From contig NC_073396.1 in assembly GCF_028641065.1 (NCBI RefSeq), forward strand, positions 19,902,001 to 19,966,000: a stretch of 64,000 nucleotides of DNA, written 5' to 3'. The notes under the pieces are model-generated. The model saw nothing but the letters and a program-made list of their open reading frames with translations. It searched no databases and was not told where the DNA came from. The first letter of the stretch is position 1; each line of letters begins with the position of its first letter. The position numbers and the translations under genes were made by a program. The DNA is from Leucoraja erinacea. Lineage: Eukaryota. This document shows, in pieces, positions 416 through 62,900 of the stretch.

Positions 416-909
416 GATATGGTGACTTAGTTGTTCCTCTGCTGACCTAGGTAGCTGTGTTTCCCAGGTAGTTAGCCGCTTACTTTTAATTTCTTATTAA
501 GTACATAGAAAAAAATCAAAACCACGACTGGCTCAAATCAATTATGCTCTAGTAGCACCACACTCACCACGCACAGTATGAAAACGTACAAGAATGTACA
601 AGAATGTACAAGGGTCCGATGCACAGTATGTGAATTCACAAGAAAAGATTTATAGATAATGGTGATGATGCATACAAGATAAATCTACAAGCTTTAAATT
701 TTACATCTGCAAGATGTAAATTTATAAGCTTGTGGAAGTCTAGCATGCCCAAATCACGAGTGCTGGAGTAACTCAGTGGGTCAGGTAGTATCTCTGGAGG
801 CCATGTATAGGTAACATTTCAGGTCGGGACACTTACAAGCGTTGCTCCAGCACTTGGTGCTCTAAATAAGATTCCAGCATCTGCAGTTCCTTGTGTCTAC
901 AAGAACTGT

Positions 910-8089: not shown

Positions 8090-8337
8090 ATTGGGTAGCT
8101 TACACCCCAGCGGTATGAACATTGACTTCTCTAACTCCAAGTAGCCCTTGCTTTCCCTCCCCATCCCCTCCACCTTCCCAGTTCTCTGACCAGTTGTACT
8201 GTCTCTGACTACATTTTAACTCTGTACCGCCCACTCCCCAGTCTGAAGAACGGTCTCGACCCGAAACATCACCCATCCCTTCTCTCCAGAGATGCTGCCT
8301 GTCCCGCTGGATACTGTCCAGTATTTTGTGTCTACCT
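8090..8337 (+). mobile_element. Penelope-like 3' fragment with degenerate hammerhead core
   Basis: Encodes LGSLHPSGMNIDFSN as at 34.0 kb, followed by CTGAAGAACGGTCTCGACCCGAAACATC at 8243-8270. Confidence 0.75.
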
Positions 8338-10129
8338 TGTGTGAAGCTAGCTCTGTTGTTAGTTCATCAAAGCCTTCACATCCCACGTTGCAAGACAGCT
8401 TTATTGAAACAGATTGCCAGAAGCAGGTTGCCAATTATGTGTTAAAGGGTTTGTTGACTTCTTCTCTGATTGATGTCTGCTTTGGTTTAAAAATAATGGA
8501 AAAAAATGAGGCCCATTCTGCATCTGAAGGATTGAGACCAAGTTGTAGGATGTCTTGGAATAAAGAGTTATTTAGTTTAGTTTGGTTTAGTTTAGTTTAT
8601 TGCTAAATAGGAAAGAAAGCCATCCAACTATTCAAGGCTACCGTTCTGCAATCTTGCATAAAGTGTATTTCAATAAATTACATGGGCAATACTCAGTCAA
8701 TGAAACATGCATAGGATGTGATAGCATCAAAAGCAACTTAGACCTTCACTACAGTGTGCTGAGCCCACCAACTACTAAATAAGCATCAACACTCATTATT
8801 CATAGCACAAGGCAAGAAATACAACCTAAGTTGATTTGTTTTAAATTAATTTGGCTACATTTTGCAGCTGTTATCTCAGCTGTTTGCTTGACAGTTTATT
8901 GGTTTCCTGTATCTTTGGAAATCTAAAGCTAACATCCCTGCTTTACAGACTGAGACCATAACTGGCAAATACTTCAATGCTAAGCTGAGAGAGTGCATAC
9001 TTCTGGAGATGCTGTCAGGCAATAAGCTAAGGTCCTGGTCACTCTTCAAAGAAGATTAATTTTCTTGGTTTAAAGACCAATGTTTATCTCTAAACCAAGT
9101 CCTACAAAAATGGATTAGATGATTTATCATCACATCATTGTTTGCAAATACACATTGCTTCTGCATTTAATACATCCAACAGTGACCATACTTGTTAGCT
9201 GTTATGGATATTCAAAAATTCTAGAAAAAGGCAATGGAATGAAGCAGGTGTTGGGGAGGTTGGGACTTTCACATCAACTCTATTCTGTAACTTCCAAGAT
9301 AGTTGCATGGAGAAAGGTATAAATAAATGACTAAAAACCACAATTTCTTTAAGAACAAAGTTTCATATTCTGCATATTTCAGAATATGTGGGTTTTCAGG
9401 TGTATTTGAGGAGGCAATGCTGGATTCAGTTGTTCAAACATCTCAATTCTCTCAAAAAATAAAAGATCTCCTTAAATGGTCAAGAAGATGGGATAAATCT
9501 CCTGTGTGATAGCACATAAAGCCAACAACTGCTGATGGCATAGCATGGCAATCAGCCAGGCTGGTGTCCAGTTACAAAGCCATTTCCATACTTAGTTCCT
9601 TTACACCCACCCAGAATACTCGAACATGAGCCACAGCAAAATGTCTAGATCAAATTAACCCAAGGGCACACAAGGGTATCTTCTCCTCCATCTCCGTCCA
9701 TCAACCCGCCAGAAAAGTCACTTTTATGTTTAATGCAGAGAATTAAATTCTATTATGTAATCATTTAGTCACTTTGACTAATCACTTTTGCAAACTCTCG
9801 GTTCATGGCTTTGCAACCTGACACTCTTTGAGAAAGCAAAAATTGGAGAGCACAACAAAAAAAAAGGTTTATAAATCCCAAATTATGAGCTCAGACTTCA
9901 AAGGTTTCAGCGAACCCTCGCTATATATTTTCACAGGAACAGTTGGTTGCAAGCTTATAATTGCAGCTGCTGCTTTCTGCTCCACTGGTTAGAGATTGAA
10001 TCCGGACCGTTCATTCAGCTTTAATGTTCCTAGTTTGTAGATACCATGCAGAGAGTTACAGTTCTAAAATAATACGTTAGCCCAGGTAATGCTGTCAGCC
10101 AACCACCAGTTAAATAAAGAAGAACTTAC

Positions 10130-19921: not shown

Positions 19922-22900
19922 CTGCCATTTTAAAGAAACCCATCATTAGTCAAATGAAGAAAGAAATCCTACAACAGTCCATGGTGGTGGTAATTTACTT
20001 GCAAGATCTCAGGCTGATCCAAGTCCTACTTTGGGTGCTTTTTCTCCCTTGGCCGGCGACAGCAACAAACAGGTAGATTGTCTCTGCAGAGACATGGGTG
20101 AAGGGCAGGAAGGGCCAACAACACAATGTAGCATAGTGTAGAATCTTGAGGCACATCAGGGGTAATGTTTAAAGGTTTCAAGGTCAGTTTATTGTCACAT
20201 GTACCAATTATGGTGCAGTGAAATTTGAGTTACAGAGAAGATGGCAATGCAGTGCCAATTAAGGTCGGCATCACATGATGTACCGGAACACTTCAAATAA
20301 AGCTATATGGATACACGTTCGGAACAAAAAGTAGATGACTTTGTTGAGGATACACTTCAGGCCTGGCGTGTCCCCATTAGTGTGAAAGGCAAGGACAATA
20401 AGTTCCAGGAACCTATGACAAAGTTCCTGACAAGTATAGGGAGTTGAAAATTGGGAAGCCCTTCAGGATTACAGAAATGGGGGATACTCAAAGACATTAT
20501 GAAATACTACTTTTGTTTTCTGTCCTCTAATCAATCCTATGTTCATTCAAAATAATATCCCCAACCATGGAGCCATTTTTTAGTAATAATCTTGTGTGCG
20601 ATAGTTTAACACACCCCTTTTGAAAATGAAGATAAACATTTGCTGATCCCAAAAGTCAGTCTGTCCGTTCTTTTTGTTATATTAAGTATGTGTTAAAAGT
20701 GTGTTTTAGTGTTCCTTGGTTTGTTTTATGTGGGGGTTGGTTGGGGGGGGGGGGGGGGGGGGGGGGGGGGATTGGGGGAAACTTTTTTTCAATCTCTTAC
20801 CACTACAGAGATGCAATCCGTATCGTATCTCCGTCCCCACTGCGGCCTAACATTGTGGAGTTGGCGGCCTTTCCTGGAGACCAACCCGGTGCTCCAAGCC
20901 ACAGGACTTTAACATTGCGGAGCTTGCGTTCCCATTGCTGGGGATCGAAGTTTCAACGCGGGGCCCGTGGACTTTAACATTGTGAAGCCCGCGGTCTCTG
21001 GAAAGAGGAGGCCGAATCGGGAGCTCCATGCCGCGGAGAGAGTTTCAACCGTCCCGACACGGGAGTTTCGATCACCCCGACGGGGGCTTCGGTCGTCGGT
21101 TGCAGGGGCTTTGATCGCCCCGACGGCGGATGGTTTGACTGCCCCGACCGTGGAAGAAGAAGACCAAGAATATTGAACTTTATTACCTTCCATCACAGTG
21201 AGGAATGCGGAATCCACTGTGATGGATGTTTATGTTAACTTTTATGTGGTTGTGGGTCTTGTTGCTTTTCACTTAGTATGGCTGTATGGGTAACTTAAAT
21301 TTCACTGTACCTTAATTAACAATAAACTTGATCTACCCACATGCTGATCAAACACTATTTCCTTTCATATCAGCAGAAAAACTATTGAATCATTTTCTAA
21401 ATGTCCTGTTACCATATCCTTAATAATAGATGCCAGTACATCCTCTAAAATGTTTAGCAAAAGTTCCTTATTCTCCCTGTCCCAGCTAATAGCTGCAATT
21501 TTCTCAACAGCCTTATTAGATCTGCATCCTCCCTATCTGCTAGATCCACTCCATGCACAAGTGGACTGTGGAAGATCAGCACTAATAACTCTGCTAATTT
21601 TGCATTTGTTTCTTCAAGAAACCTAGAATATAGACCAGCATGTCCAACGGACCTGTCAGTTTTTAACCCCCTTAACCCCCCTTCAATGTTGGTAGATCCT
21701 TGGTGTCCCAGCATTTCCAGCACAGTCCCTACATTTTCTACGACATGGCAAGTACTGATATTTTTTCAAATAACTTGATCAAAATCTATCCTCCCCATTT
21801 TTAATTCTCCTGCCTCTGAACACTCACAATTATTTCTATTTGCAAAGTTACAGAATCTTATTTTATATTTCTTGCTAGTTAACTCTAATATTCTGCCTTT
21901 CTCCTCTACAATCAATTTGGGGTCACCTGTTGCTGAGCCCTGTAACTGGTAGTGCTTTCCTTCCCCCTGGTCAGTCACGGGAGCAGGGCAGCAGCCTCAC
22001 CTGCACAATGGTGTCGAGGTTCTGTCTTGACGTAGTGGAGGAGCTGTTGATGACTGAGGAAGGTCCCATCGTCACCACAGTGACTTGGTGCGAAGGCAGC
22101 GGAGGTGGAGTCTGCACTATAACAGTGGGGTGGTGGGTTGGTGCTGGGATGATGTGTGCCGGCAGCAGCTGAAAGACAATGAGGGGAAAAGTAGTTTGCA
22201 AAACGTTAACTGAGAGTTGCTCACTCAACTTTAGCAGAGGCACAAAACAGAATGTAGAATTGTCCCTTGTGTGTAGGATAGTGCTAGCATATGGGGATCG
22301 CTGGTCAGTGTGGACTCCGTGGGCTGAAGGGCCCGTTTCCATGCTACATCTCTAAATTAAACAGCACATGAAACATAGAAAATAGGTGCAGGAGTAGGCC
22401 ATTCGACCCTTCGAGACTGCACCGCCATTCAATATGATCATGGCTGATCATCCAACTCAGTATCCTGTACATGCCTTCTCTCCATACCCCCTGATCCCTT
22501 TAGCCACAAGGGCCACATCTAACTCCCTCTTAAATAGCCAATGAACTGGCCTAAACTACCTTCTGTGGCAGAGAGTTCCAGAGATTCACCACTCTCTGTG
22601 TGAAAAATGTTTTTCTCAGGCCTTTTAGCCCACAATATCCATGCTGAACATGATTCCAAGGTAAACTAATCGTATCTGCCTACATGTGATCCATATCCCT
22701 TCATTTCCTGCATATCAATGTGCCTATCTAAAAGCCTCTTAAATGCCACTTAAATTATTGAAGCCCATTCTTAGGCAGTGAAGACCAATCTGAGCATATA
22801 CTGTAGCTCTCTAATGCAGCCACCATCCTGTTTGTTAATGAATTAATACTGCTGTTTGCTCAGTTAGATTCTGTACTGGAGACAGAAGGAGCTGCGGATG

Positions 22901-24378
22901 CTGGAATCTTCAGTAAAGCACAAAGTGCTGGAGTAACTTAGTGGGTCAGACAGCATTACTGGAGGTTATGGATAGAAGATGTTCAGGTCAGAACCCTTCT
23001 TCAGAAGAAAGGTTCCGCCCAATATGTTGCCCATCCATGTCCTGCACAGATGCTGCTTGACTTGCTGAGATACTCTAGCACTGTGTTCTGCTTAGGTTCT
23101 GTAGTGACGCTCAACATTCTTTGGATTTGGTCTTCACACTGAAACATGAACTCTATTTCTCTTTCCACAGATGCTGCCTGACCTATTGAGTGTTTTCCAT
23201 TATGAGCAAAAAACAACCTGTTGGAGGAACTCAGTAGGTCAGACAGCATCTGTGGAGGGAATGGACAGACTGAAGACAGGTCCAATTAGAAACACCGTCT
23301 GTCCATTTCTCACCCCCCAGATGCTGCCTGACCTGCTGGGTTCCTCTAACGGTAAGATTCCAGCATATGTAGGCTCTTGTGTCTCTATAGATAAGTACTA
23401 TTTTTATTTAGAATCGTCAACCTATTTATGCCTTGCATTTATCCTATTTTTCTGGTGGCTGATATTTACAAGGTCTAATTTTGGACTCTTCACTTGGAAG
23501 CATCCTCTAAATTAACATTTTTTGGCACAGATCAAATACCAAATTTCCACTCCAGAGCTCCTCCTGGTTTTGGACTAATCGAAGTACCACGGTCACCCAC
23601 GGCTCAGCTCGGGACCCGTGTGGAGATGAGAGGTACGTTGGCCCTAGTTGCAGCTCTGCATGCTACAGAGGGAAGCAGTGTGTCGGGGGCCGAGGGCTGA
23701 CCTGTGTCATGTGTCGGGGTTCAAGGTCCTGCAGCTCGCCCTGCTGAAGCACCTTGGACTGTTCCAGGTGCTGCTGTTGCAGCTGTACGTGTTGCGCGAT
23801 AGCCTTTAGCTTCTCGGGGTAACCGTGGGCCTCCAGCGAGCGAACCTGCTGACAGATAGACCTCATCAGTCTTGTGGGGGCAGCACACCACAGGAGGGAT
23901 TCCCCACATGTTAACGTAAAGAGGTTGAAGCCTGCTGCCCAATCAATGTCCACGCTTCATTGGTATTGGTTTATTATTGTCATGGTTTATTATTGTCACG
24001 TACCAAACTGGATGCTATCCAGGCAGATCATTCACGTGTACATCAGGTAGTGCAAAAGAGAAAATAAACAGAGAAAGTGCAGAAAGTGCAAGGGTCACAA
24101 CAAGGTAGAGTGGGAGATCAGGAATTTGTCCCCACGAGCGTATGAAAGGTCCATTCAGTAGCAGTGGGGAAGGAACTGTTCTTGAATTACATATTAGTTT
24201 ATTATTATCATTTGAATCGAGATACTGCAAAAAACATATCTGGTGGTATGTGCTTCTAAGCTTCAGTACATTCTGCCCGATGGGTGAGGGAAGAAGAGAG
24301 ATGGCTGGAGTGCGAGTTGTCCTTGATTATATTGGCTGCTTTCCCAAGGCAGCATAATGTGTAATGTGTAAATTAAGT

Positions 24379-24410
<32 letters not shown>

Positions 24411-27400
24411 GGGAGAGAAAGAAGGCTGGTCTGCGTGATGGATTAGGCTACATCCATAACTCTCTGCAATATCTTGCGGTCTTGGATAGAGCAAGTGCCA
24501 AACCAAGTTTAGTGCATCACAACAAGATGCTTTTTATGGTGCATTTGTAGAAATTGAGAAGAGTTGTTGAGTACAAGGAGGATCCTGCTGTTGGTCCTTT
24601 TGTTGACGAGCTCCTCGATACCCCATACATTAGCAGCTCTGTGTCCAGCAGGGTGCAGCTCTTTGCATATTAGAGCTGAGACTGAATGAAGGGCATGTAC
24701 TGGATTGCCACAATGCACTGCACCCTCTCTCACCACTCCTAACATCATTCTATGGACACCAACTTGTCCATCACACCTTGATCAGGGATACAGTTTGTCC
24801 TCACTATGGGGAGGTTCAATCATGAGATCCACTGGGTCGAAGCTCTGATCCTGCCCACCATCCACATCCAGACAAATGCTAATAAATCCCATCCCTTCCA
24901 TCTGCACCTCACACTGCCTCGGCAAGGCCACAAGCATAATCAAGGACCATTCTCCCCCTGGTCACTCCCTCGTCCCCTTTCTCGCATCAGACAAAAAATA
25001 CAGAAGTGTGAAAGTACATACTTCCAGATTCAGGGACGTTACTTCCCAGCTGCCATCAGGCAACTGAACCATCTTATCACCAACTGTAGTGGTCCTGAGC
25101 TACGATCCACCTCATTGGAGACCCTCGGATGATCTTTAATTGGACTTTACCTTGCACTAAACGTCATTCCCTTTATCATGTATCTGTACACTATGCATGG
25201 CTCAATTGTAATCATGTATAGTCTTTGCTGACTGTTTAACACGCAACAAAAGCTTTTCACTGTAACTTAGTACAATAAACGAAACTAAACTAGTGGGCGG
25301 TACGATGGCGCAGCGGTAGAGTTGCTACATTACAGCGCTTGCAGCGCCAGAGACCAGGGTTCGATCCCGACTATGGGTGCTGTTTGTACGGAGTTTGTAA
25401 GTTCTCCCCCTGACCGTGTGGGTTTTCTCCGAGATCTTTGGTTTCCTCCCACACTCCTAAGACGTACAGGTTTGTAGGTTCATTGGCTTGAGTGTGTATA
25501 CTTGGTATACGTATAAATTGTCCCCTGTGTTAATGTGCGGGGATCGCTGGTTGATGCAGACTCGGTGGGCCGAAGGGCCGGTTTCTACGCTTATCTCTAA
25601 ACGATAAACTAAACTAATAAAACTTAGGGTACGGTTTCCTATCTCTCATTCAAAGTGGCCCAAGATTAAAACTGTGCCCTCCTGGTCTGCTCAATTTAAC
25701 ACTGGTGGTCCTGTTAATGAAACCGTATCAAGCCAAAGCTCACCAACCTGTTCCTCCAGCATCATCCTAACCGAGCGTTCTTTATCCAGCTGCTGCCGCA
25801 GTTCGATCATCTCCCGTTTCAGGTCCTCTAGCTTCTCATCCTCCCACACATCAGGGGAGCCAATTCCTTCGTCTTTATCCTCTGCACGCCTCCGTTTGGG
25901 AGAGGAGCCGCTGTACTCCTGTGTTCCAAAGACAAAGCTCAATTAAACACAGTGGCAGTTAGACCAGGCACAAAGTCTTCTCTTATGCAAGAGTACACAG
26001 TGCTGGAGTAACTCAGCGCGTCAGGCAGCATCTCTGGAGAAGAAGGATCAGTGACGTTTCAGGTCGGAACCTTTCTTCAGCAAGATGCAAGAGGGCAGCT
26101 TCTAAACCATCTGTCTTTGAGTTTAAAGGCTATGAGTTTAGGTTTAAAGGTTTATTACAAGATAATAGAATGACAGGCATTAAACAAAGTGCTGGCGAAT
26201 GCAGACTATGGGCATGTCAATGCTGGTTTACAAAAAAAGTGCTGCAATAACTCAACGGGTGAGGCAGCATCTCTGGAGAACTACCCACTACAATCAATCT
26301 GAAGAAAGGTCCTGACCCAAAACATCACCTATCCATGTTCTCCAGAGATGCTGCATTGACGAGACCACAGCTAGAACACTTACACTTTGGTAGGACAAAT
26401 ACAAATGCAGCTTCTTCATTAAAGGCAGACCACAAAATATTGCTGTGCAGAAGTATCTGACTGCCGTTTTATACTGAAGAGTGTTGGCGAGACCGTACCA
26501 GGACAGTACATGGCTGTTGTCCCCTTATTTAAGCAGGCATTTGCTTGTATTGGAGGTGGATGGGATATGAATGGTGCTGTCACAGACCTATTTGACAAGG
26601 AAAAGTTGAGCAGGATGGGCTAATGCGGTTTAGAAGAATGAGAGGATCACAATATTCTCAGGGCCTGACAGGGCAGATGCCGAGAGGATATTTCTGCTCA
26701 CGGAGTATTCTAGAAATCTAGAGAAAGGGGGCTCATGCCCCTTGCTAAAAAAATTGTGCTTTGCAGCCATCTACTGCACATGATAATCTCTAAATGACAG
26801 CCACCAGGTGAGCTCTAGCACCCCGTTCCATCAACCTCCCGTGACTACGCCCACTGGTGATGAACAACAGCACTGCGCTCACCTAGTCCCGAGGTGGGGA
26901 AAAGGTAGTTGCCAATGGCCACAGCCATGCCATCCATCTCCCATCTCAACACTGTGCTCACCTGAATGAAACGCTTCAGCTGCGAGTTCTGTTGAAGTAG
27001 CCGTGTTTTCTCCTGCTCGAGCGAGAATATATATTCTGCAGTTTGCTGCAAAATGGCTGCCTGTGTGGAAAGGACAATAGTGAGCATGAGTGGGCTTCAC
27101 CACTACATCACCCAGCCCAGGGTAGTCACTTCTATCAGGAAGCATGCGTTTCATAAGGAGCTGATCAAGTATAGGAAATCCCACCACCAAAAGGTTTCCT
27201 CATAGTACTACAGGACTGATCTTTCATTTTGCATGTCAGATTGTCCACTTAAATGACTTAACTCACAGGAGTCGTTAATCCAAATGGAAAAGGAGAATTA
27301 TCTAAAACAAAGCCCTCTCCCAGAGAATTATCTGAAACTCACCCCTCCCCTGGAGATAGATACAAAAAGCTAGAGTAACTCAGCGGGACAGGCAGCATCT

Positions 27401-30400: not shown

Positions 30401-33400
30401 AGTTCAGTATTGTACAAGCACAGATATGTACGAACACAATCAACTACTGAACAAGCAGCTCAAATACAAATATGATATTGGTACAGGGTACAGATACCTT
30501 TATAGCACAACCAAATACAACTGCGGTCTCTGAATCTCATGGGAGTGAAACTACTATTTAGCAAAATTGAATCTATTAAAGATTGTCATCCTACACCGCC
30601 TGCTCGTGTAAAATCTTTAAAAGGGCAGTCAATGAAAATAATAAGCACAATTGTCAAATGTACATGTCCAGCCACAGGGTGGAATTTGGTCGATTGATTG
30701 AGAGATACAGCATGGAAACAGCCCCTTTGGCCCACTGAGTCCACGCCGATCATCAATCACCCATTCACACTAGTTCGATGTTATCCCACTTTCCCATCTG
30801 CTCCCTGCACACTAGGGGCAGTTTTCCGGGTAAGTGCAAAGGAGGTAACAAAATGTTGACCTCCACTATACGCAAATGCAAACCAATGGGTTGTTCGTAA
30901 CTTCAGGTTATCATTTTCGTCAGGGGAATGAGGCTGAATGTGGCCCATACCCCCAACTCCTGGTCCATCTCTGACAGGGCAAACACAGCAGAATCCTATT
31001 CTTCTTTTCTCCACAGGACCTGCTGAGTTCCTCCAGTAGTTTGTAGGAACAAGGAACTGTAGATACTGGTTAATACACAAAAGAACAAAAAGTGCTGGAG
31101 TAACTCAGCAGGTCAGGCAGCATCTCAGGAGAACATGGAAAGGCGACTTTATGGATCGGGACCCTTCTTCAGACTTAGTAGAAGGTAAACCAGCACCTGC
31201 AATTCCTTGTTTCTGAAAGATTGGATAAATTGGGGTTGTTTTCATTGAAACACAGGAACACATGTACATGATAGTAACCTTAACTCAACTCCTGCATCCT
31301 CTGGTCATCCTTTACCAACTACTTACCAATAATTTATCTGCCAATACCTTTGAGAAGGAGAGTTCCAAAGACCTCATGGGTAAACATTCACCTCATCCCC
31401 CTATTTTTTTAAACTGCTTCCTCCAGCTTAAAATTTTGCCACAAAGAAATATTCTCTCCATGCACATTGTATGAAAATCTTCAGGGTCATAAGTTACAAT
31501 CAAGTTGCCTGTCACTCTTCTAAATGCCTGCAGGAGCAACTCTCAGCCGTCCAACGTTTCCCTGTAAGACACCCTGCCCAAAATAGGTTTGTCACGGGCA
31601 TAGTCTATTTCCCAGGGTAAACTATAGGGGCAATAGATTAAGGTGAGAAGGGGAAAAGATTTCAAAAAGGGACCTGAGGGAAATTTTTTCCACAGTGGCG
31701 GATGTATTCATGTAACGAGCTGCCAGAGGCGGTTGTAGAGGCATGTACAATAATAGTTCAAAACACATTTAGACAGGTACATAAATATAAAGCTCAAATA
31801 GGTATATTGGTCAGAATGAATGAGTTGGGCAGAAGGGCCTGTTTCCAGGCTACGTAACTCTATGACCCTATAACTTTCTCTGAACGACTTCCAACATATT
31901 TACATCCTTCCTCAAATAACAAGAACATTACTGTACATTAGACTGCAGATCTAATCTCATCAATGCACTATATAACTGAAACATAGCCTTCCCTCCTTTT
32001 CTAGTTAATTCCTCTTGAAATTCTTAAACAGTTTAATTACAAGTAAATAAATACGTGTTATTGGCAAAAGCACCTAAAACCAGCAGCATAGGTTTAAAAT
32101 GATTGTGAAGGGATTAAATAGAAAAGGAGGAATTATTTTTATCCACCAGAGAATGATGGGCATGTGGAACTCTTGAAAGAGCAGCAGGCACAGATACTCT
32201 TGACACGTTTAAACAAGCACTTGATGAGCAGTAATCTGCAGGGGCTCTGGACCTGTTGCTGAAAACTGTGATTAGGTTAGATAATTATTTTTTGACTAAC
32301 ATTGATACAATGGGCCAAATGGCCTCCTATGTCATAAATCTTCTACAATTATAATGTAAACTAGTTAGCATTTGCGCATTTAAGGAGAACTTGATGCATG
32401 GTTAAGAGCATCTCGGAAAGCATAAGAGGAAATTCCACAGTGTAAACATTACCATTGTCAACCTAGACAAACCACACTGATCCCAGTCACGAACGTAGAG
32501 CAGCGCAGCTGGTAGAATCACTGCCTCACAGCATCAGAGACCCTGGTTCGCTCCCGACTACAGGTGCTGTCTGTGCGGATATTGTACATTTCATCCCACC
32601 TTCCAAAGACGTGCAGCTTTGTAGGTTAATTGTCTATGTAAATAGCCCTTCATATGTAGGATGCGAAAATGATATAACATGGAACGAATGTACAGGTGAT
32701 CGATGGACGTCGTGGGCTCGGTGGGCCTGTTTCCACGCTGTATTTCTAAACTAAACGCTTCTACTTCCTCAGAAGACCGAGGAAATTCGTTATGTCTCCT
32801 ATGACTCTTACCAACTTCAACAGATGCACCATGGAAAGCATCCTATCCGGGTGCATCAAAGCTTGGTTTGGCAACAGCTCTGTCCAAGACCACATGAAAT
32901 TGCAGAGATTGTGAACACAACCCAGTCCATCACACAGACCAGCCTTATCTGCCCGCCTGGCCTTTAACTTCATTTACACTCACATTGCCTCAGAAAAGCA
33001 GCCAGCGTAATCAATCACCACTTACATGCCGGTCATTCTATTTTGTCCCTGTCACTGTCTGAAGATGGTACAGAGGCTTGAAAGCATGTACCACCAGATT
33101 GCCGAACAATTCTTCTCGCTGATATCAGACTCTTGAACGGACCTCTTATAGATCAGGATTTATTCCTGATCTTCCAATCTACTTCATTACGGCCCTGCAC
33201 TTCCTTTATTTACCCTTTCTCTATTACACTATATTGAGCACTATGTTTATTTTCTCTTTGGTGCTATTTGACCTACTCATGACCTACTCATGAATTTCCT
33301 GGATAGAATGCAAAATAAAGTATTTCACACTCTCTCAGTACATGTGACAATAATAAACCAATACCAAAACAAGAGGAGTTTAACGAACCACAAGCACTGG

Positions 33401-36400
33401 CTTTGATCATATTAGCCCTACGAGATGTTTGTAGGCTGTGATCTGTATTTTTATTTATTCAGTCTCCAACAATGGTGTTGCCATTGGCAAACCTGAAGAG
33501 TCCGAACTGCATCTGGCTACACTTCGTGAGTACAGATTGGGTAGAGTGTAGGAGGAACACCACAACACAGCCTTGAGGTGCTCCTGAATAATTTATATTT
33601 ATTCAGTGTCTTTGACAGTGATAGAATGTGATGCTGGTCCCAGATGAGGTGTTAACATCTCAGACAACCCGTCCTGGACCCAGCATGTTGATAGAAATTT
33701 GAAGAAGGCACGTCATCTCTAATCTCCTACATTTTTAAAGATATTCGGTATGTCACTGAATAGTCTAACAAACTAATACAGTTTGAAATGATCCTGACAG
33801 GTTTCATCATGGCCTCATACAGAAATTACAAGGTAGACAAAAGTGTCTCAGCGGGTGCAGCATCATCTATGGAGTGAAGGAAATAGGCAACGTTTCGGGC
33901 AGAAACCCTTCTTCAGACTGATGTAGGGTGGGGGGGGGGAGGGGTGGCGTGGAGAAGAAAGGAGAAAGAAAGAGGAGGAGCCAGAGGGCTGAGGGAGAGC
34001 TGAGAAGGGGAGGAGACAGCAAGGGCTACCGGAAATTGGAGGTCAATGTTCATACCGCTAGGGTGCAGACTGCCCAAGCGGAATATGAGGTGCTGCTCCT
34101 CCAATTTCCGGTGGTGCTCACTCTGGCCATGGAGGAGGCCCAGGACAGAGAGGTCGGATTCAGAATGGGAGGGAAGTTGAAGTGCTGAGCCACAGGGAGA
34201 TCAGGTTGGTTAATGCAGACCGAGCGGAGGTGTTCGGTGAAACGATCGCCAAGCCAATGATTGCTTGGGTCCTTGAATGAGTTGAGGGGGGAGGTAAAGC
34301 GACAAGTGTAGCATCTCTTGCGGTTGCAAGGGAAAGTGCCCGGGGAGGGGGTGGTGTGGGGAGGGAAGGGAAGAATTGACCAGGGAGTTAAGGAGGGAGC
34401 GGTCTTTGCGGAAAGCAGATAATTAGCATATGTAGAAAGCAGACAAGGGACGAGATGGGAAGATATGGCCAGTGGTGAGATCACGTTGGAGGTGGCGAAA
34501 AAGATGGAGGACTATTTGTTGTATGTGGCGGCTAGTGGGGTGAAAGGTGAGGACTGGGGGGACTCTGCCCTTGTTGTGAGTGGGGGGATGGGGAGAGAGA
34601 GCTACGGGGTATTGAACAGACCCTAGTGAGAGCCTCATCTATAGTAGGGGAAGAGAACCCCCGTACCCTGAAGAATGAGGACATTTCCGATGCCCTGGTG
34701 TGGAACAGCTCATCCTGGGAGCAGATGCAGCGTAGACGGAGGAATTGGGAGTAGGGGGATGGAGTCCTTACAGGAAGCAGGGTGGGAAGAAGTGTAGTCT
34801 AGATAGCCATGGGAGTCAGTAGGTTTATAGTGGATGTCGTCAGAAGTCTATTACCTGCGATGAAGATAGTGAGGTCAAGAAATGGTAGGGAATTGTCAGA
34901 AATGGTCCAGGTGTATTTGAGTGCCGGGTGGAAGTTAGTGGTGAAGCGGATGAAGTCAGAGAGTTGTGTGTGGGTACAGGAGGTAGTACCAATGCAATCG
35001 TCGATATAGCGGAGGTAGAGGTCGGGGATGGGGCCCGGGTACGTCTCGAACAAGGATTGTTCGACGTACCCTACAAAGAGGCAGGCATAGCTGGGACCCA
35101 TGCGTGTGCCCATAGCTACGCCTTGTATTTGGAGGAAATGGGAGGAGTCATAACGAAAAGTTATTAAGGGTAAGGACCTTTAATTACAACAGAGGCTATA
35201 GAGAACGGCACATGATGGATTGGGCTGAGCACAGGTCAACCCAATCTATCATCCATTGGGTTGATACAGCTGTCCCCTCCTTCTAAAGCATTTACACAAG
35301 GTGCAAGAAAGTGGCATCTATCATCAATGATCTCCACTATCCGGGTATGCCCTCTTCTCACCACTACCACCAGTTAGGAGGTACAGAAATCTGAAGGTTC
35401 AGGAACAGCTACTTTCCTAGAACTGTCAGGTTCTGGAACTGACCTGCACAACCCTAATCTTACCTCGACAATTGAACACTACAGATCACCTCTTGTACTA
35501 TCGTGGATCAATTTTTTTTAAATTGTATTTTCCACTGATGTCTTGTTTTTGCAGTCTTTTTCTTTTCACTGTCCTGTAGAATTTAACGTGCATTTTATGT
35601 TTTGTGTTGTTTAAGTCTATGTGCTTGTGATGCTGCAACAAGCAAGATTTTCATTGTACCTGTACCTCACCATACTTGTGCTTCCGACAATAAACTCGAC
35701 CTGAACTTTAGACACAAAAAGCTGGAGTAACTCAGCAGGACAGGCAGCATCCCTGGAGAGAAGGAATGGGTGACGTTTCGGGTCGGGACCCTCTCTTCGA
35801 CCTGAACTTGACTTGACGTGTTATTAGTCACCCGGCAAGTGAGAATACAGACAGTACAGGAACAGGCCCTTCGGCCCACAATGTCTGTGCTGAACATGAT
35901 GTCCAAGTTAAACTAATCTCCTCTGCCTGCACTTGACCCATATCCCCTCCATATCCCTATCTAAACGCCACTAATGTATCTGCCTCAACTACCATCCCTG
36001 GCATGTTGCAGGCACCTACCACCCTCTTTGTAAAAAAATTATCCAGCACGTCTTCTTTAAACTATCCCCCACTCACCTGAAAGCTACCCTCTAGTCATTG
36101 ACATTTTCACCCTGAGGAATGGTTCTGACCCTGATCCCTCTGAATTTCACTCAATTGCTTCCCATTGACAGCTGTATCACAGTCAAACAGCCCGTACTAC
36201 CCACCTTGTCACAGTATCAGATGCTGTCTTCCTCCCTTTGGACAGCTCAATTGTAATCATATGTAGTCTTTCAGCTGACTGGGTAGCACATGCCAAAAAA
36301 AGCTTTTCACAGTACCTCAGTACACGTGATTATAAACTAAACTAACTTCTCAAAGCTGGCTCAGTGGCACAGCTAGAAGACCCGCTGCCTCACAGCACCA

Positions 36401-41160: not shown

Positions 41161-42134
41161 AGGGATATGGATCACATACAGGTAGATATCACTTTATCTT
41201 GGCATCATGTTTTACATGAACATTGTGGACCAAATGGCCTGTTCTTGTGCTGTACTGTTCTGTGTTCTATGTAACATTGCCTGTCCATTCCCTTCACAGA
41301 TGTTTCCTGACCCGCTGAGCTCCTCCAGCACTTTGTGTTGTTCTTAAGTCTGTACACATTAGTTGAGGAACGTGTTGGAGCTTGCACCATAGTAAAGGCT
41401 CTGCTTTGTAACCATCTGTTTTGTGATATTCAGGAGCCTTCGTGTTCTTAATTAAACTTCAGTCACTTTTGCAAAACCCTAAAATCTCGGTTTTAGAGTA
41501 ATAATTATATGTTGCTCGGTACAACAAGAGGAATAATACAAAAACTCAGATTGACAGAAGTGTAGCAAAAACAAAGCATCTGCTCCTGGAGATATATTTT
41601 TGAAGGACTGGTCATGTGACATTTCAGCGTGGAATTCCACAGCTCCTGACATGAACACCGTCATTCCACCAGCCTACTCCATTACGTTGTATAGTTAGAC
41701 ATCTGTCTGAAGAAGGGTCTCAACCAGAAACATCACCCATTCCTTCTCTCCAGAGATGATGCCTATCCCGCTGAGTTACTCCAGCACTTTGTGCCAAATT
41801 TCCAAATCCATCAGCTCCTCAGCATTTTTTGGCTCTCTCCACTAAGAAAATATTCCAATCTGGTTTTTTTTAATTGACCCAGTGTGGATATCGTCACACT
41901 TCCATACCTCTGCTCTGAGAACATAGAACAGTGCAGCATTCTGGTAAATCTCTTCTGCCCCCTCTCATAAACCACCAAATTCATCCTTCAATGCGGCGAC
42001 CAGAACTGCACGCAATACTCCAAACGCAGCTTGACCAAAGTCCTATAAAACTGCAACATGACTTCCTGACTTGGGAGAGTTTAGTCACTTACTTTATTTG
42101 TCTGTGCCTCTTTATATCCTTCTAGTCCCACCTT

Positions 42135-43740
42135 AGAGTCATAGAGTGATTCAGTGTGGTAATAGGCCCTTCGGCCAAACTCGCCCACACCGGCCAACAA
42201 TGTCCCAACTACACTAGTCCCACTTGCTTGCGCTTGTTTCACATCCTTCCAAACCTGTCCTATCTATGTACCTGACTAACTGTTTCTGAAACAATGGAAT
42301 AGTCCCAGCCTCAACTACCTCCCCTTGCAGCTTGTTCCATACACCCACCACCTTTTGTGTGAAAAAGTTACACCTCGGATTCCTATTAAATCTTTTCCCC
42401 TTCACCTTGAACCTATGTCCTCTGGTCCTTGATTCCCCTACTCTGGGCAAAAGACTCTGTGCATCTATCCGATCTGTTCCTCTCATGATTTTGTATACCT
42501 CTAGAAGATCTCCCCTCATCCTCCTGTGCTCTATGGAATACAGACCCAGCCTACTCCACCTCTCCCTATAGCTCACACCCTTTAGTCCTGGCCACATCCT
42601 CATAAATCTTTTCTGAACCCTTTCAAGCTTGATAATATCTTTCCTATAACATGGTGCCCAGAACTGAACACAATATTCTAAATGTGGTCTCACCAACGTC
42701 TTATACAACTGCAACATGACATCCCAATTTCTATACTCAATACTCTGACTGATGAAGGCCAAATTGGCAAAAGCCTTTTTGACCACCTTATCTACCTGCG
42801 ACTCGACCATCAAGGAACCATGTACCTGGACTCCTAGATTCCTCTGCTCTACAACACTACCCAGAGGCCTACCATTTACTGTGTAGGTCCTGCCCTTGTT
42901 CGACGGCCTCAAAATGCAACACCTCATACTTTTCTGTATTAAATTCCATCAACATTCCATACATTCCTCCACCCACCTGGCCAATCGATCCAGATCCTGC
43001 TGCAATCTTTCACAACCATCTTCACTATCTGCAAAACCACTAACTTTTATATCATCAGCAAACTTGCTTATCTTGCCCTGTATGTTCTCATCCAAATCAT
43101 TAATGTAGATGTCAAACAGTAATGGGCCCAGCACTGAACCCTGAGGCACATCACTAGTCACAGACCTCCAGTCCGAGAAGCAACCTTCCACCATCACCAA
43201 CTGCTTCCTTCCATGAGCCACTTTGCTATCGATTCAGCTATCTCTCCTTGGATCCCATGTGATCTAACCTTCCAGAGAAGCCTACCATGCGGAAACTTGC
43301 CGAATGCCCTACTGAAGTCCATGTACACAACATCTACAGCTCAGCCCTCATCAATCTTTTTGGTCACATCTTCAAAAAGATCAATCAGGTTTGTGAGATG
43401 ACCTCCCACGTACAAAACCATGTTGACTATCCCTAATCACCCCTTGCCCATCCAAACGCCTGTATAACCTATCCCTCAGAATACTCTCAAGTAACTTACC
43501 AAGTACAGATGTTAAACTCACCGGCCTATAGTTCCCAGCATTTTCCCTGCAGCCCTTCTTGAAAAGGGGCACAACATTTGCCACCCTCCAGTCTTCCGGC
43601 ACCTGTACTGTATTTAAGGATATATCTGATCAGGCCCTAGAGATTTGTCTGCCTTCAAACACGACAGTACCTTCAGTACTTCGACAGTAACCCTGACTGC
43701 TCTCAAGATACTTCCAGTGCGTCCTCCAATTTCCTCCGTC
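42135..43740 (-). mobile_element. CR1-clade LINE, 5'-truncated, RT region to 3' tail
   Basis: [57 protein letters not shown]; disrupted frames. Confidence 0.92.
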
Positions 43741-43759
43741 CTACTGTCTTTCTCCTCGA

Positions 43760-46860: not shown

Positions 46861-47170
46861 ACACTAGAGGCAGGAAACATTTCCCGATGTTGGGGGAGTC
46901 CAGAACCAGGGGCCACAGTTTAAGAATAAGGGGTAAGCCATTTAGAACGGAGATGAGGAAATACTTTTTCATACAGAGAGTTGTGAGTCCGTGGAATTCT
47001 CTGCCTCAGAGGGTGGTGGAGGCCGGTTCTCTGGATGCTTTCAAGAGTTAGATAGAGCTCGTAAAGTTAGTGGAGTCAAGGGATATGGGTACAAGGCAGG
47101 AACGGGGTATTGATTGTGGATGATCAGCCATGATCACATTGAATGGCAATGCTGGCTCGAAGGGCCGAAT
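46861..47170 (+). mobile_element. CR1 3' fragment, inverted relative to the 43.8-46.9 kb copy
   Basis: About 110 bp is a near-identical reverse complement of 43765-43870, then continues into the CR1 3' UTR. Confidence 0.8.
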
Positions 47171-47505
47171 TGGAGGAGCAGCAACTCATATTTCGCTTGG
47201 GCAGTTTGCACCCCAGCGGTATGAACATTGATTTCTCTAATTTTAGGTAGTCCTTACTTTCTCCTCCCCTTCTCAGCTCTCCCTCAGCCGACTGGCTCCA
47301 CCTCTTCCTTTCTTCTTCCCGCCCCCCCATCCTCACATCAGTCTGAAGCAAAGATCCTAGAGGAGCTCCTCTAGTATCTTTGGTCTGAAGAAGGGTTTCT
47401 TTGCCTATTTCCTTCGCTCCATAGATGCTGCCTCACCCGCTGAGTTTCTCCAACATTTTTGTCTACCTTCGATTTTCCAGCATCTGCAGTTCCATCTTAA
47501 ACATA
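47171..47505 (+). mobile_element. Penelope-like 3' fragment interrupted by a 34-bp palindromic insertion
   Basis: EEQQLIFRLGSLHPSGMNIDFSNFR*, then the same 3' repeat as at 33.9 kb. Confidence 0.8.
47349..47382. mobile_element. 34-bp palindromic micro-insertion with 8-bp target-site duplication
   Basis: GTCTGAAG [CAAAGATCCTAGAGGAGCTCCTCTAGTATCTTTG] GTCTGAAG. Confidence 0.75.
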
Positions 47506-52084: not shown

Positions 52085-52399
52085 TCGAATAGGATTCTCC
52101 TAAACTTCTAGAGGTGCACGGGAGAGAGCATTCTGACTGGTTGCATCATGGCCTGGTTCGGCAACTTGAAAGTCCAAGAGCGAAAAAGACTACAAAAAGT
52201 TGCGACCACTGCCCAGTCCATCACCGGCTTTGACCTCCCCACCATCGAAGGAATCTATCGTAGTCGCTGCCTCAAAAAGGCAGCCAAAATCATCAAGGAC
52301 CCACACCATCCTGGCCACACACTCATCTCACCATTACCATCAAGAAGAAGGTACAGGAGCTTGAAAACTGTAATGTCCAGGTTCAGGAACAGATTCTTC
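52085..52399 (+). mobile_element. Rex1/Babar fragment forming an inverted repeat with 52419-52726
   Basis: The same peptide (AWFGNL...RLQKVATTAQSITGFDLPTIEGIYRSRCLKKAAKII) is encoded on opposite strands. Confidence 0.9.
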
Positions 52400-52418
52400 C
52401 TGAACTTCTTCCTGAAGA

Positions 52419-53465: not shown

Positions 53466-56400
53466 AACTTCCCTAAAGACACCAGAGACAGCATATGATG
53501 TAGTTTTGAGCACAAAAAACAAACTGCCGTAGGAATTCCTGTTCCTTCAATAACTTCCCTGTTCCCGATAGTCTGAAGAAAGGTCCCAACCTGATAGGCC
53601 ATGTATGTCCCCGTTCCCGTCAATCCCCTTCCACCCCCCGCATGCTGCCTGACCAGCTGAGATCTTCCAGCACTTTGTGTTTTGTTCCAGAATATGGTTC
53701 CAGCATCTGCAGTTCCTTGGGTCTCTAGTCCCCATTATCCATCTAAGAGAGCAGTAAAGTCTCAATTTAATATCTCATCTAAAATCTCCAAGAAAGGCAC
53801 AGGAATGTTTTTTTAATTTATTCAAAAAATAAACTTTATTCATTCAATATATGGAGGAAATATAATACACTTGGTACATTTCTTTATTTTTGCATTCACA
53901 GTGTCATCGAATCAGGCTTTAAATATGTTCATCTCTCTTAAGTTGAAAAAATCCATAAGCTTTTGACCAGGAGTTTTTTGCAGCTGATTCTCAGCTGATG
54001 CTAGTACAGCTACGTGGGCAAATTACTGATGAGGCAGAAATATGAAATAAGAAGAAAAAATGTTGAAAATACTCAGCCGGTCAAGCAGCACCTGTGCAGA
54101 GAGAAAAAAGGTATGAACATGTCACCAATGGTAGTCAATTAATCTGAATCTCTGGAAGACACAAAGTGCTGGGGTAACTCAGCGGGTCAGGCAGCATTTC
54201 TGGAGAATGTGGATAGGTGACATTTCTTTGTCAGGACCCTTCCACAGGCCAATTGTTGCGTGGGGTTGGGGAGAGGAGGGCCAGGACAGACAAGGAGTTG
54301 TTTGATAGGCAGATGGTTGGACAAGATGAAAAAAACAGAAGCAGAAGGTGTGAGACAAAGTGATAGATGTGTGAATTGTGAAGATAGAGGAAGGAATTTA
54401 CGTAAAAGTGGAGGTACAAGTCCAGATGGGGCACAGAGGAGGGGATGGGGGTGTGGGAGGATGGTGGGTGTTAAATGGGAGAAGAAGGGAGAGGGGGAGG
54501 GTTATGTAGTGACCCAAGCAATTTATTTATCTGCATTTGTTAAAGTTGCAAATTGTTGCTTAAAATATAAACAGTTAATGTAACACGAAGAGACTCTGGC
54601 AACGTCATGTTTACATTCTAATAGATAAGGTACTAAATAATTCTGATTTAACCTCATGTCAATCCTGCCCGTCACATTCTGATCAGAGCTATTTGAAGTA
54701 GGTGATATAAAAAATTATCGCAGAATCATCAAAATATGTGGGACAGAGGAAACATTATGGCCACAAACAGGTCTATTTAAGCCACCCCCGCTCTCAGACC
54801 TAGCCTTAAAACATAGAAAAGCACAGAAACATTCCCTTCGGTGCACACTGTCAGCGCCGAACATGATGCCAAGTTATACTAATCTCCAATGTGATTCATG
54901 TTCCTATCTTAAAGACCCTCAAATACCACTTTAATATCTGCTTCCACCACCATCCCCAGCAGTGCATTCCAGGCCCCACCACTCTCTGTTGCCCCGCGCA
55001 TCTCCTTTAAACTTTGCCCCTCTCACCTTAAACCTATACCTTCTAGTCTGACATTTCCACCCTGGGAAATAGCTTCTGACTGTCTACCTTATCTATGCCT
55101 CTCACAATTTGATACACTTTGATCATCATGTAGGTAACAACTTCTCAAGGGCTCATCCATTTTCCTCCCTTCACCGCCCTTATGTTGTGCCAGTACTCTT
55201 TGAGTGAAAAAATATTTACCTTCACTGCTTTCCATTCCTTCCACCAGTTAACCTAGACCTATGTTGTTATTGACCCCTCTACCAAGTACCCCTCTCCCAT
55301 TCACACTGCATAAGCATCTCTTAAGTTTAACCTCAGTTAAACATTACATCAGCCTCCTATTTTTTGCAAAAGCCAGTCTCTCTCTCCTTGTAAAATAATT
55401 CTTCAGCCTAACTAATGTCCTTCCAGGAATGTCGTTGGCTGTCTTTTCCTGTCAAAGTTCTACGTGATGTCAGATCCACTAATGTGGTGAACTGAGATGG
55501 CCAGCAAGCTGCAGTTCAGGGGGCATATTGTCAATGCGCACTAAACACTAGCCTTGCCAGCACAATCTACATCCTAAAGAGCACGCCAGAATCATCAAGA
55601 GCCACACCACCCTGGCCACGCTCTCATTTCACTCCTACCATTGGGAAGAAGGTACAAGAGCCTGAAAACTGTGACCACCAGATTCAAGAACAGCTTCTTC
55701 CCAACAACCATCAGCCTCTTCAACACTGCACAACACTGTCCTGAGTAACTATCAACTTCTATGGACTGTCCTAGGTTATTTATTTAGTGGATTTATATAT
55801 TTATCTGCATGCTTTGTGTTTATGGGCCTGTTAAGCTGCTGCAAGTAAGAATTTGATTGTTCCATTGTCAGTACATTTGACAATTAAACATCTTTAATCT
55901 CTTGTGTAGGAAGGAACTGCAGATGCTGGTTTAACCCGAAGATAGAAATAAACTCGCTGAGTTACTCCAACTTTGTGCGTCTATCTACTCTTTGAATTGA
56001 ATCTGATTTACGCTCTTGACTGGAATGAACAACTGAAAAATTCTTGGAAATTTGAGTACCTATTATTTGTGTTGAGCAGTTCCTGCCAAGCACCCAGGTA
56101 AGTAAAGTCAATTCTGTTGACCACTAGGATGGCAGATGACCTAGTAATTCTCAGTAAAACAAGCTTGTTCTCTGAGGAGACATCTGTCCCAAAGCAGCCT
56201 AAATTCAATAATACCCAGGAGACACAAGGAACTGCAGATGCTGGAGCAAAACACAGAGTACTGGAGGAACTCAGTGAGTCAGGTGGCATCTGTGGAGGGA
56301 AATGAACAGGTGATGTGTTGGGTCAGGACCACTGCATAATACACTGTATTGCAAACGCCAAACAAACATACTTTTTTTGTAGCTAAAATTTAAAAATACT

Positions 56401-59950: not shown

Positions 59951-62900
59951 GTCATACCACTCTCGCTGTCATACTGATGGCCACTATATGTTGTCACCGC
60001 CCACTGTTCTGTCTGATGACCCATTTTCAGTTACCATGTAACCAACTAGTCCATTTTCAGAAGATAGACACAAAATGCTGGAGTAACTCAGCGGGATAGG
60101 CAGCATCTCTGGAGATGTTCCTGGAGATCTCTGGTCTGTTACTCCAGCATTTCGTGTCTATCTAGTTTAAACCAGCATCTGCAGTTTCTTCCAACCAGTC
60201 CATTCCCATTCCTGCTTTAGCATTAGAGGAGTTTGGGCAAATGTGGAGCTTCAGAGTTTGAGGGGAGACCTGATAGAACTTTATAAAATTATGAGAGGCA
60301 TAGATAGGGTAGATAGTCAGAACCCTTTCGCTAGGATGAAAATATCAAAAACTAGAGAACATACAGTAACTTAAAGAGGAGAGGGGGAAAGTTTAAAGAA
60401 AATATGTGGGACAAGTTTTGTTTACAGAGGGTGGTGGGTGCCTGGAACGTGCTGCCAGGGGTGGTGGGGGAGGCAGATAAGATAGTGGGGTTTAGAGGCA
60501 TTTTATTTTCTAACTTTAGTTATTGACATATGTACAGATGACACAACTTTGCATTACCCAAAATCACGGTGGCTTATTTTACTAGGAACACAACTCACCA
60601 GTATGGTGAGGGTTGCCAGTGATGGTGGTGCACGAGAGAACAGCTTTTAGATAGACACATGCATATGCATGAATGATGGGACATGGATCATGTGCAGGCA
60701 GAAATAATTGGTTTAATTTAGCATCATGTTCTGCCAGATATTGTGAGCCAAAGGGCCTTTTCCTGTGCTGCACTGTTCTATGTTAACTATAATACTGCAG
60801 CCCACACCTAGCATTCTGATATATTATGCCAATGTTGTTCTGTAGTGATTTCCTAGTGTTGCACTGAAGTGAACTTCCAGTGTTACTTCATTTACCTCAC
60901 AGATAGACTGTAGTTGGCTGTTGGTGCTGTACTGTAGTCTATTGGTGTTACACTGTGACGTCCTCAATGCTATACTGTAGTCCACTTCTATCTTGCACTA
61001 TACCAACTTCTATGTTGCAGTGGGACAATGAAAGGTATAACTTGCATTCACCTCGCATCTTTCACAATCCCAGAGCATTTAAATGAAGGCTCTAACTGCC
61101 GTCTGGTGTATATGTGAGAAGTCTCAATGATTATTTACTACATCTGTCTTGTGTCCTGAACAAACACTTATCCCTCCAGCAGTATGACTGCAGCAAACAA
61201 TCTGGCCATTTTATTCGTTTGGTGAGTTTTTGGTGTACAGATCAGTTGCGTGCTTCCTTACAATGCAATGGTGATTATCGAACAGTGACGACAGAACATT
61301 TTGGTGTTGTTTTAGTATTGCCACACAAGAAATAGTGAAAAGCCCTTGTCTGAGTGCTATCCCATTGAATCAAATAATACAATACATCAATACAATCAGA
61401 CCAAATTAAAAATGTAGAGCAAAGAGAAACATACAGAGTATAATTTTCATCATTGTGGCATTATGTAGTCCAATGTCCACAGGTAGATTGAAAGATCGGG
61501 ACCCTGGCATATAGGAGAACCATTCAGTACTCTGATAAGAGAGGAAGAAGCTGTTCCTGAGTTGGAGATAGTTTTAGAAAATGCCGTATAGTTTATTCTT
61601 CCTATTTCCAAATCTGCTTGAAATATATTTGTTGTTATAAGTGCTCTTTCTGTGGACCGGTACACATTTAACAGTTCACATAGAGCTTACGGCTGTACAA
61701 CAGTTTAGTTTATAACATTTTAGAGGTGCCGGTACACCATGCCGGTGCATGCCGTCACAAAAAAACACTGGCTGCTATAGTAAAGGGAATCCTAAAAAAA
61801 TAGCAAATATCATCAAAGACCCACAGCACATTGGCCATGCTCTCATTTCATTCCTATCTTGGGAAGAAGTTACAGGAGCCTGGAAACTGTGACCTCCAGG
61901 TTCAAGAACAGTTTTTTCCTTTCAACCATCAGGCTGCTCGAACATCACACAACACTAATCCCAGCATCAATGCACTTTTAGTGTACCATGCATGTACTGA
62001 GGTACAGTAAAAAGCTTTGGTTTATGGACTGTCGTTGCACTACTGTCTTTGGGTTTTGTACTAGTATTATGGTTAATAATTTATTGATTTAAAAAAAAAA
62101 GAGATTATTATGTTTTATCAGTGATTTTGCCTTAATGGGCCTGTGAAGCTACTGCAAGTAAATATTTAATTGTTCTGATGTCGGTACTTAAGACAATGAA
62201 ATAGTGTAACAAAGAACTGCAGATGCTGGTTTAAATCAAAGATTGACACAAAATGCTGGAGTAACTCAGCGGGTGAGGCACCATGTCTGGAGAGAAGGAA
62301 TGGGTGACGTTTTGGGTCTTCAGACTTGAGTCTGAAGAAGGGTCTCGACCCGAAGTGTCGCCTATTCCTTTTCTCTAGAAATGCTGCCTCACCCATTGAG
62401 TTACTCCAGCATTTTGTGTTTACAATGAAACAGTCTTGACTTGGCTATTAAAAGAAGCACAGCAGGTAGTATACAATCTACACATATCACATGATAAGAA
62501 GTAGTCAATTTTTAGAGATGGTATTTGCAAGTGTAAATGTTGCCCAGGATGCTGAGAGAATGCCACATGGTCACAGGGAAAAGGTGCAAACTCCGCACAG
62601 ACAGTATCCGAGGTCAGGATTGAACCCGGGTCTCTCATGCTGTGAGGCAGCAGTGCTTCCAGCTGTACAACAGATGCCTCGCCAGTACCTCGCCAACGTT
62701 GCCCAGTACAGAGTTAGATAATGAGGAGCAGTGGCAAATGTAAACCCATTCTTCCCCGGCACCTACAGTCTGGGGAGCTCCTGGCTGGGAGCCAGCAGGC
62801 TGTCTCTGCACAGGAGTTAAAGGCATGATGAACTTCTTGAAGCACAGTTTGGAGCAAAAACCTTGCTGCGAGACCTGGAAAAGGAGAATTCTTCACCTCC

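Follow-up and report, generated by a model that had tools for sequence, protein, structure and literature searches.

Dispersed hammerhead-bearing repeats in a skate genome region as probable truncated ends of Neptune-type Penelope-like elements

A stretch of 64,000 nucleotides from the skate Leucoraja erinacea (assembly GCF_028641065.1, contig NC_073396.1, positions 19,902,001 to 19,966,000), here called the window and numbered from its first letter, contains a short repeat that recurs many times on both strands and, at one place, stands with a hammerhead-like motif behind a Penelope-like reading frame. An earlier note, made from the letters alone, took the repeat for a non-autonomous family of ribozyme-bearing retroelements mobilised by the Penelope reverse transcriptase (RT). 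The question raised by the locus is whether these units are such a family, with working ribozymes, or the ends of larger elements that were copied incompletely. We consider it probable that they are the 3′ pseudo-LTR ends of several Neptune-type Penelope-like (PLE) subfamilies, mostly 5′-truncated insertions. The links to the end of the open reading frame (ORF), the scattered 5′ starts, the optional tail and the head-to-head pairs are the reasons for reading them as truncated insertions of autonomous elements.

The repeat unit and its parent element

Using a profile built from the window, we found 42 repeat pieces that cover 3438 bp, or 5.4% of the 64 kb; the same profile gave no match in any of 10 reversed or shuffled controls. 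All 12 coordinates given in the earlier note fall within the profile matches, and its description of the unit as very high-copy holds at 42 pieces in 64 kb. The full unit exceeds the length first described. Of the 36 bodies that extend to their own 3′ end, 14 are followed by a tail of 35–40 bp, and tails are also found alone or inverted (at E ≤ 0.5 the window has 22 tail matches and its reversed control 1). With tails included, the repeat amounts to 4041 bp, 6.3% of the window. The copies are ~18% diverged and form no tandem array, none of the 16 tandem-repeat rows for the window having a period above 33. The positions of the copies and junctions discussed here are collected in Table 1.

The segment following the predicted cut site was used to assign 36 of the 42 pieces: 9 are type A, 2 type B, 12 type C and 8 type D, with 5 unclear. 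Types A and B both include copies joined to the last codons of the ORF and its 3′ UTR (8239+, 33924−, 47378+), and the statement that the unit recurs without any ORF has to be corrected, as 8239+ and 47378+ are preceded by a 3′ UTR and, before it, the terminal part of the endonuclease ORF. No ORF link was found within the window for the 12 copies of type C or the 8 of type D. The upstream leaders of type D vary in length; two of its copies, 26292+ and 50606+, have a common C-rich leader upstream of the core. A long pyrimidine-rich stretch lies upstream of the copy at 54257−. The flagged copy, that is, the one behind the Penelope-like ORF, lacks ~8 bases of other family members; sequences aligned to it show this as an insertion at 33845/33846 and as loose ends at 33847. 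In the copy that begins at 47160, the hammerhead core contains a 34-bp near-perfect palindrome (47349–47382) with a direct duplication of ~8 bp on its flanks. The palindrome is in no other copy of the window and looks like a very small DNA-transposon insertion.

Table 1 Features of the repeat and its parent element in the window
Feature	Position	Strand	Details
Minimal type I hammerhead motif, flagged copy	33883..33922	−	sole complete copy of 28
Flagged copy, rest of pseudo-LTR end	33830..33888	−	no tail; ~8 bases of other family members missing
Pyrimidine-rich 3′ UTR and last codons of ORF	33918..34055	−	candidate retained intron, 138 nt
Penelope-like ORF, 5′-truncated, frameshifted	34039..35173	−	RT end, thumb, Cys linker, endonuclease without GIY-YIG motif
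Second long copy, type as flagged	47160..47503	+	ORF end, 3′ UTR, interrupted hammerhead, body, tail
Third long copy, type A	8088..8339	+	ORF end, 3′ UTR, hammerhead with broken stem II base, CG lost
Solo copy	25985..26087	−	core intact, A-U at stem II base, CG palindrome, core-proximal helix I absent
Solo copy, type A	35709..35802	−	core broken
Solo copy, type A	41699..41798	+	8 bases of upstream leader; stem II base and CG lost
Cluster	22874..23389		five bodies, two tails, two head-to-head junctions
Head-to-head pair	62200..62424		palindromic junction at core start; tail on one arm only
Head-to-head pair	26232..26355
Body with tail, inverted tail at its 5′ end	30995..31215		further fragment
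Body with inverted tail at its 5′ end	756..902
Inverted tail joined to short body fragment	55900..55986
Head-to-head pair of short fragments	60057..60190		tail on one arm

That the unit derives from Penelope, as the earlier note had it, agrees with the position of the flagged copy behind a Penelope-like ORF remnant (35173–34039), its hammerhead lying ~120 bp downstream of the broken RT–endonuclease ORF. The RT remnant is 84% identical to Leucoraja proteins and 79% to Amblyraja proteins, followed by shark and ray proteins, and in tblastn a whale shark relative gives an alignment of 204 aa at 57%, as expected of a Penelope-type RT. When six relatives were scanned, RVT_1 was found in five and GIY-YIG (PF01541) in three; the full-length relatives carry one or the other or both. 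A deletion of 33 aa removes the GIY-YIG motif from the endonuclease of the flagged copy, the parts on either side of it being alignable. Between RT and endonuclease, at about 34330–34300, there is a cysteine linker of the form C-x4-C-x2-C. A linker of the form CX2-5CxxC marks Neptune and Nematis elements (PMC8557442, PMC3846280). Judged by this linker, which is common to Nematis too, the parent would be a Neptune-type, endonuclease-bearing (EN+) PLE.

There is no full-length or tandem (pLTR-ORF-pLTR) parent in the 64-kb window. Metagenome and viral contigs scanned for the unit motif gave no match, and a scan with a whale shark relative yielded 74 candidates, of which none was confirmed. The 5′ junction of the ORF remnant is spanned by contigs from two runs with different species labels (35123–35333 with no differences, and 35123–35331 with 9 differences and 6 gaps), and the Penelope insertion is therefore old. 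Just beyond this junction there is a short imperfect hairpin (35205–35265). Pieces of the ORF also appear as exons in skate gene models, namely DCC isoform X2, a TDRD5-like protein, a DUF4518 protein and nicotinamide riboside kinase 1.

Other mobile elements are present in the window. An LTR-retrotransposon remnant at 38917–41057 has RT, RNase H and integrase domains in Gypsy-like order, and LINE fragments lie at 42214–46627 and 52255–53546, some with RVT_1 matches. A short tail at 35830–35920, which we take to be CR1-like, has 14 further matches in the window. Three GC-rich stretches (12360–12900, 36850–37540 and 58400–59000) contain overlapping low-complexity frames and are possibly host promoters or first exons.

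The hammerhead motif and its decay

The 3′ end of the Penelope-like element reads as the earlier note stated, and all parts of a minimal type I hammerhead with an ACGU palindrome are found in the flagged copy. The minus strand from 33916 to 33889 is CUGAAGA-A-GGGU-UUCU-GCCC-GAAA-CG-UU, that is, the core CUGAAGA (33916–33910), an extra A, a 4-bp stem II, GAAA and the palindrome. Helix I consists of 2 bp, a 2×2 loop and a further 2 bp, and the predicted cut follows GUU, between 33889 and 33888. A strict descriptor has two matches in the window, 33916− and, without stem I, 26080−, which are 7.8 kb apart; it has none in 100 shuffles. A loose pattern of the core occurs 7 times vs 1.13 expected. The Rfam hammerhead families have no match in the window at E ≤ 1, nor in 33800–34000 at E ≤ 10, and the assignment as a hammerhead therefore rests on the descriptor.

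The remaining copies are far from complete. Among the 28 pieces that reach stem II, CUGANGA is kept in 12, GAAA with UH in 10, both in 4, both with stem II in 2 and everything in 1, and the expectation that the copies carry an intact core is not borne out, the two descriptor matches being all that the window contains. Compared with the consensus, the non-CpG core positions of the 20 core-spanning copies, a choice that favours core matches, differ at 26/200 and the downstream positions at 86/676 (Fisher p = 0.90), so that conservation of the core in excess of the rest of the repeat, which the earlier note proposed as a test, is not seen. Losses are heaviest where CpG is concerned: mismatches amount to 55/158 in the CpG columns, 8 of 20 copies no longer have G12, and 4 of 28 still have the palindromic CG.

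Stem II had been said to vary while staying paired. The three variants that were named do exist; all four pairs are kept in only 12 of 28 copies, and covariation, the other test proposed, is absent. In an alignment of 23 of the 28 copies (23129, 38779, 47378, 50410 and 58067 left out), stem II is 84.6% paired, double changes number 3 vs 7.7 in shuffles, and the covariation score of 0.149 lies below the shuffled mean of 0.178, 476 of 500 shuffles scoring as high. At position 10.1 an A stands opposite C, U and A in 4, 2 and 1 copies, respectively, and the A-U variant of stem II is best explained by a G-to-A change that happened to combine with CpG decay. On the sequences, then, the ribozymes appear to be mostly dead, with the core decaying as fast as the rest. 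The copies in a single window record decay after insertion and say nothing about selection on master elements. When six copies were folded, all z-scores were −1.2 or higher, and we therefore make no claim of a conserved tail structure.

RNA of the family was looked for by aligning ~6% of a raw polyA run from a related species to 33600–35900, counting only reads at least 80% alike. The 2.3-kb stretch attracted 23,968 of 7,335,232 reads (0.33%). Depth is highest over the two units (2505 and 6662), falling to 932 at the ORF end and ~186 over the RT, that is, in the same direction as the 5′ starts of the genomic copies (unit > ORF end > RT). The reads are 1:1 by strand over the hammerhead units and 3.4:1 over the RT (34447–35139); the latter are probably mostly antisense to the element, if the library is reverse-stranded as the CR1-like tail suggests. 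Reads resembling the type A copy carry on into a C-rich leader at one end and the tail at the other (loose ends at 35792 and 35709). A pile-up of read ends at the cut site, for which the earlier note proposed to look, does not appear: no accumulation of molecule starts or ends is listed for 33600–35900 in this fragmented, related-species polyA RNA, which is pooled over old copies and gives a weak test.

Truncation, fold-back and the origin of the short copies

The 5′ starts of the 42 pieces are scattered. Twenty-two lie inside the unit (model positions 15–81), 20 pieces extend to the core, 3 to the ORF end and 1 as far as the RT, and the very short copies exceed the long ones beyond what one constant rate of truncation across the RT would give. 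Neighbours are often close, with 12 of 46 gaps at or below 40 bp vs 1.4 expected; 8 of these 12 pairs are head-to-head (p = 0.003), and an inverted truncated copy is found at 7 of 34 loci. Strong 5′ truncation, a neighbouring truncated copy in inverse orientation and a tail on one side are features described for PLE insertions (PMC8557442, PMC3846280, PMC2377424). Comparison of the target sites of 9 tailed copies, which are themselves ~18% diverged, gave best shared words of 0–7 bp and no convincing duplication.

Three Rfam microRNA matches fall on fold-back pairs, including 62264–62402 and 23158–23340. All are below the gathering scores and lie on head-to-head pairs of the repeat, and we regard the microRNA identity as false; for annotation this means that such pairs give false microRNA matches. 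If transcribed, the hairpins at 62264–62402 and 23158–23340 could form double-stranded RNA.

To the anatomy, ORF links, tail, inversions and neutral decay observed here, a mechanism can be fitted whose priming steps and ribozyme chemistry are taken from the literature. The RT–endonuclease of the element would nick DNA and begin copying within its own RNA. Two start sites are envisaged, matching the two 3′ ends that the copies have ~95 and ~135 nt downstream of the core, and the choice between them would make the tail optional; two internal RT start sites are known to define the tail in another element (PMC11167929). Most cDNAs would stop or fold back within 50–150 nt, leaving solo ends and head-to-head pairs, and the hammerhead would be copied along with them because it lies just upstream of the start sites. 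In the full-length tandem parent, cleavage would take place only as a dimer and probably with the help of the protein. Minimal hammerheads are reported to cleave weakly and as dimers only (PMC4209133; PMC6765202, citing Lunse et al.), and cleavage to be protein-assisted and dispensable for insertion in vitro (PMC11167929). Once inserted, copies would no longer be selected and would decay, most rapidly at CpG sites.

A separate non-autonomous family of working ribozymes, as first proposed, does not agree with the absence of excess core conservation and of covariation, and the anatomy fits truncation. In a narrower form, types C and D at least would be an element of ~130–150 bp with master copies of its own, moved by the Penelope RT in trans. 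We regard this as rather unlikely. Types A and B are ORF-linked, the leaders of type D differ in length, more than half of the pieces (22/42) start inside the unit, the unit is not found in tandem and there is no sign of selection on the ribozyme among the copies. What speaks for it is that within the window none of the 20 type C and D copies is preceded by an ORF end, that some starts cluster near the core and that short units far outnumber ORF pieces; non-autonomous PLE derivatives have also been published, in Chlamys (PMC8557442) and as tandem retrozymes of vertebrates (bioRxiv 10.64898/2026.07.22.740005). A non-autonomous origin may hold for the 12 copies of type C.

The clustering of several 5′ ends and fold-back junctions 1–4 bases upstream of the core (62323, 31177, 63978, 22993/23013 and near 11345) could mark a real 5′ end, and the sequence TCAGTCT just upstream of the hammerhead fits an initiator consensus. 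The short copies might then be run-off cDNAs, from a transcript that starts just upstream of the hammerhead and is primed at the tail site of the 5′ pseudo-LTR, with the RT running off the 5′ end of the RNA; for the Anolis element in vitro, internal priming near the start of the ORF gave products whose length was determined by the template's 5′ terminus (PMC11167929). Against this, at least six copies retain part of the upstream leader, no common molecule start is listed in the related-species polyA RNA, and upstream sequence that differs between subfamilies can mimic a boundary, which makes such an origin quite improbable. A regulatory role, for which the scattered hammerheads would have been retained and would act as trans dimers within host transcripts, is hardly credible. 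The share of polyA reads on the 2.3-kb stretch, peaking over the two units, and the complete flagged copy would suit such a role, set against 27 of 28 copies that lack part of the motif, a core not conserved in excess, unit reads at 1:1 by strand, so that sense copies are not depleted, and no listed pile-up of ends. For a dimer of the flagged copy, the cleavage-competent fold is at −9.9 kcal/mol and the best dimer fold at −33.4 kcal/mol, values from the nearest-neighbour model only. Truncated ends of Neptune-type elements remain the reading that we prefer.

A candidate intron and comparison with known systems

In the three long copies, 123–138 nt separate a candidate donor, G|GTATGA in the last codons of the endonuclease, from a candidate acceptor, the CAG directly before the core-proximal U of helix I. 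The candidate intron is retained in all three genomic copies, and its part behind the ORF end is 73–83% pyrimidine. Two gene models, DCC of Amblyraja and TDRD5-like of Rhinoraja, leave the endonuclease sequence at the donor codon and in the same phase. A donor at the stop codon was set aside, as the upstream donor matches the gene models. Three patterns for genomic copies with the exon joined to the hammerhead gave no match; this is consistent with the known retention of introns by PLEs and proves nothing. No splice joint for it is among the 15 joints listed of 1,637 in the polyA reads of the related species. A dip in depth over the candidate intron was rejected as evidence of splicing, the same dip being found in DNA contigs. 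In Penelope of Drosophila virilis, the pseudo-LTR contains a 75-nt intron that extends to the 5′ end of helix I (PMC2377424, PMC4209133). We therefore put forward tentatively, as a possibility, that the terminal repeat of a vertebrate Neptune-type element holds a spliceosomal intron of ~120–140 nt with its acceptor exactly at helix I of the hammerhead. If this is true, the coupling of splicing and ribozyme is conserved across Penelope clades, and the arrangement of the fly is ancient and not a one-off.

Solo hammerheads of truncated Penelope elements are already known, and the new leads are the density and the intron-like stretch that ends at helix I. Solo minimal hammerheads from truncated PLEs are reported to be massive in number and widespread, Latimeria and Xenopus having thousands, and single motifs are called 'probably related to truncated PLEs' (PMC4209133, Cervera and de la Pena 2014), and tandem retrozymes and PLEs have been reported across vertebrates, including one chondrichthyan (bioRxiv 10.64898/2026.07.22.740005). 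Our literature search found no paper on the repeat family in skates; the family may be present in repeat libraries, and supplements of the papers may include chondrichthyan families. For annotation, the result names one of the commonest repeats of this genome region as a Penelope-like end piece. Should the density be the same across the genome, skates would provide a very large number of copies for studying the purpose of the hammerhead, the start sites of the RT and the retention of introns; with ribozyme-derived ends at ~6% of the window, they would be the richest known record of where the Penelope RT starts, stops and folds back.

The flagged motif corresponds closely to the minimal type I hammerheads of metazoan PLEs (PMC4209133) in its core, the extra base between 9 and 10.1, the G10.1-C11.1 pair, the palindromic 15.2-16.2 and the weak helix I. 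As in those elements, the motifs lie in the terminal repeat, are mostly dispersed singly and occur as close pairs on opposite strands. The differences are a stem II of 4 bp here and 7–8 in Schistosoma, and a main text there that, as far as checked, names no cartilaginous fish. The density is far higher if the window is typical, with 2 descriptor matches and 42 remnants in 64 kb vs ~4,000 (Latimeria) and 9,000 (Xenopus) motifs per genome, counted with that paper's own descriptor. Neptune EN+ PLEs (PMC8557442, PMC3846280) share the RT, the Cys-rich linker, the C-terminal endonuclease, the 5′ truncation, the inverted truncated copy and a one-end tail of 30–40 bp; in the skate, the GIY-YIG motif is deleted from the flagged copy and there is no partial tandem in the window. 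Poseidon PAc of Anolis (PMC11167929) likewise has its hammerhead roughly 110–150 nt upstream of two 3′ ends and no RNA-seq ends at the cut site; it belongs to a different clade, and its mechanism was shown in vitro and is inferred here. Drosophila virilis Penelope has its intron end where the skate's candidate GT, pyrimidine tract and CAG stretch ends, splicing being proven in the fly and the skate intron being a candidate from sequence. Non-LTR retrozymes (PMC7229834; bioRxiv 10.64898/2026.07.22.740005) are also short and non-coding, with a type I hammerhead and a relationship to PLE terminal repeats. They form head-to-tail tandems with a ribozyme in each unit, whereas the skate copies are solo or head-to-head with cores mostly broken; as the unit forms no tandem array, these copies are not retrozymes in the sense of PMC7229834.
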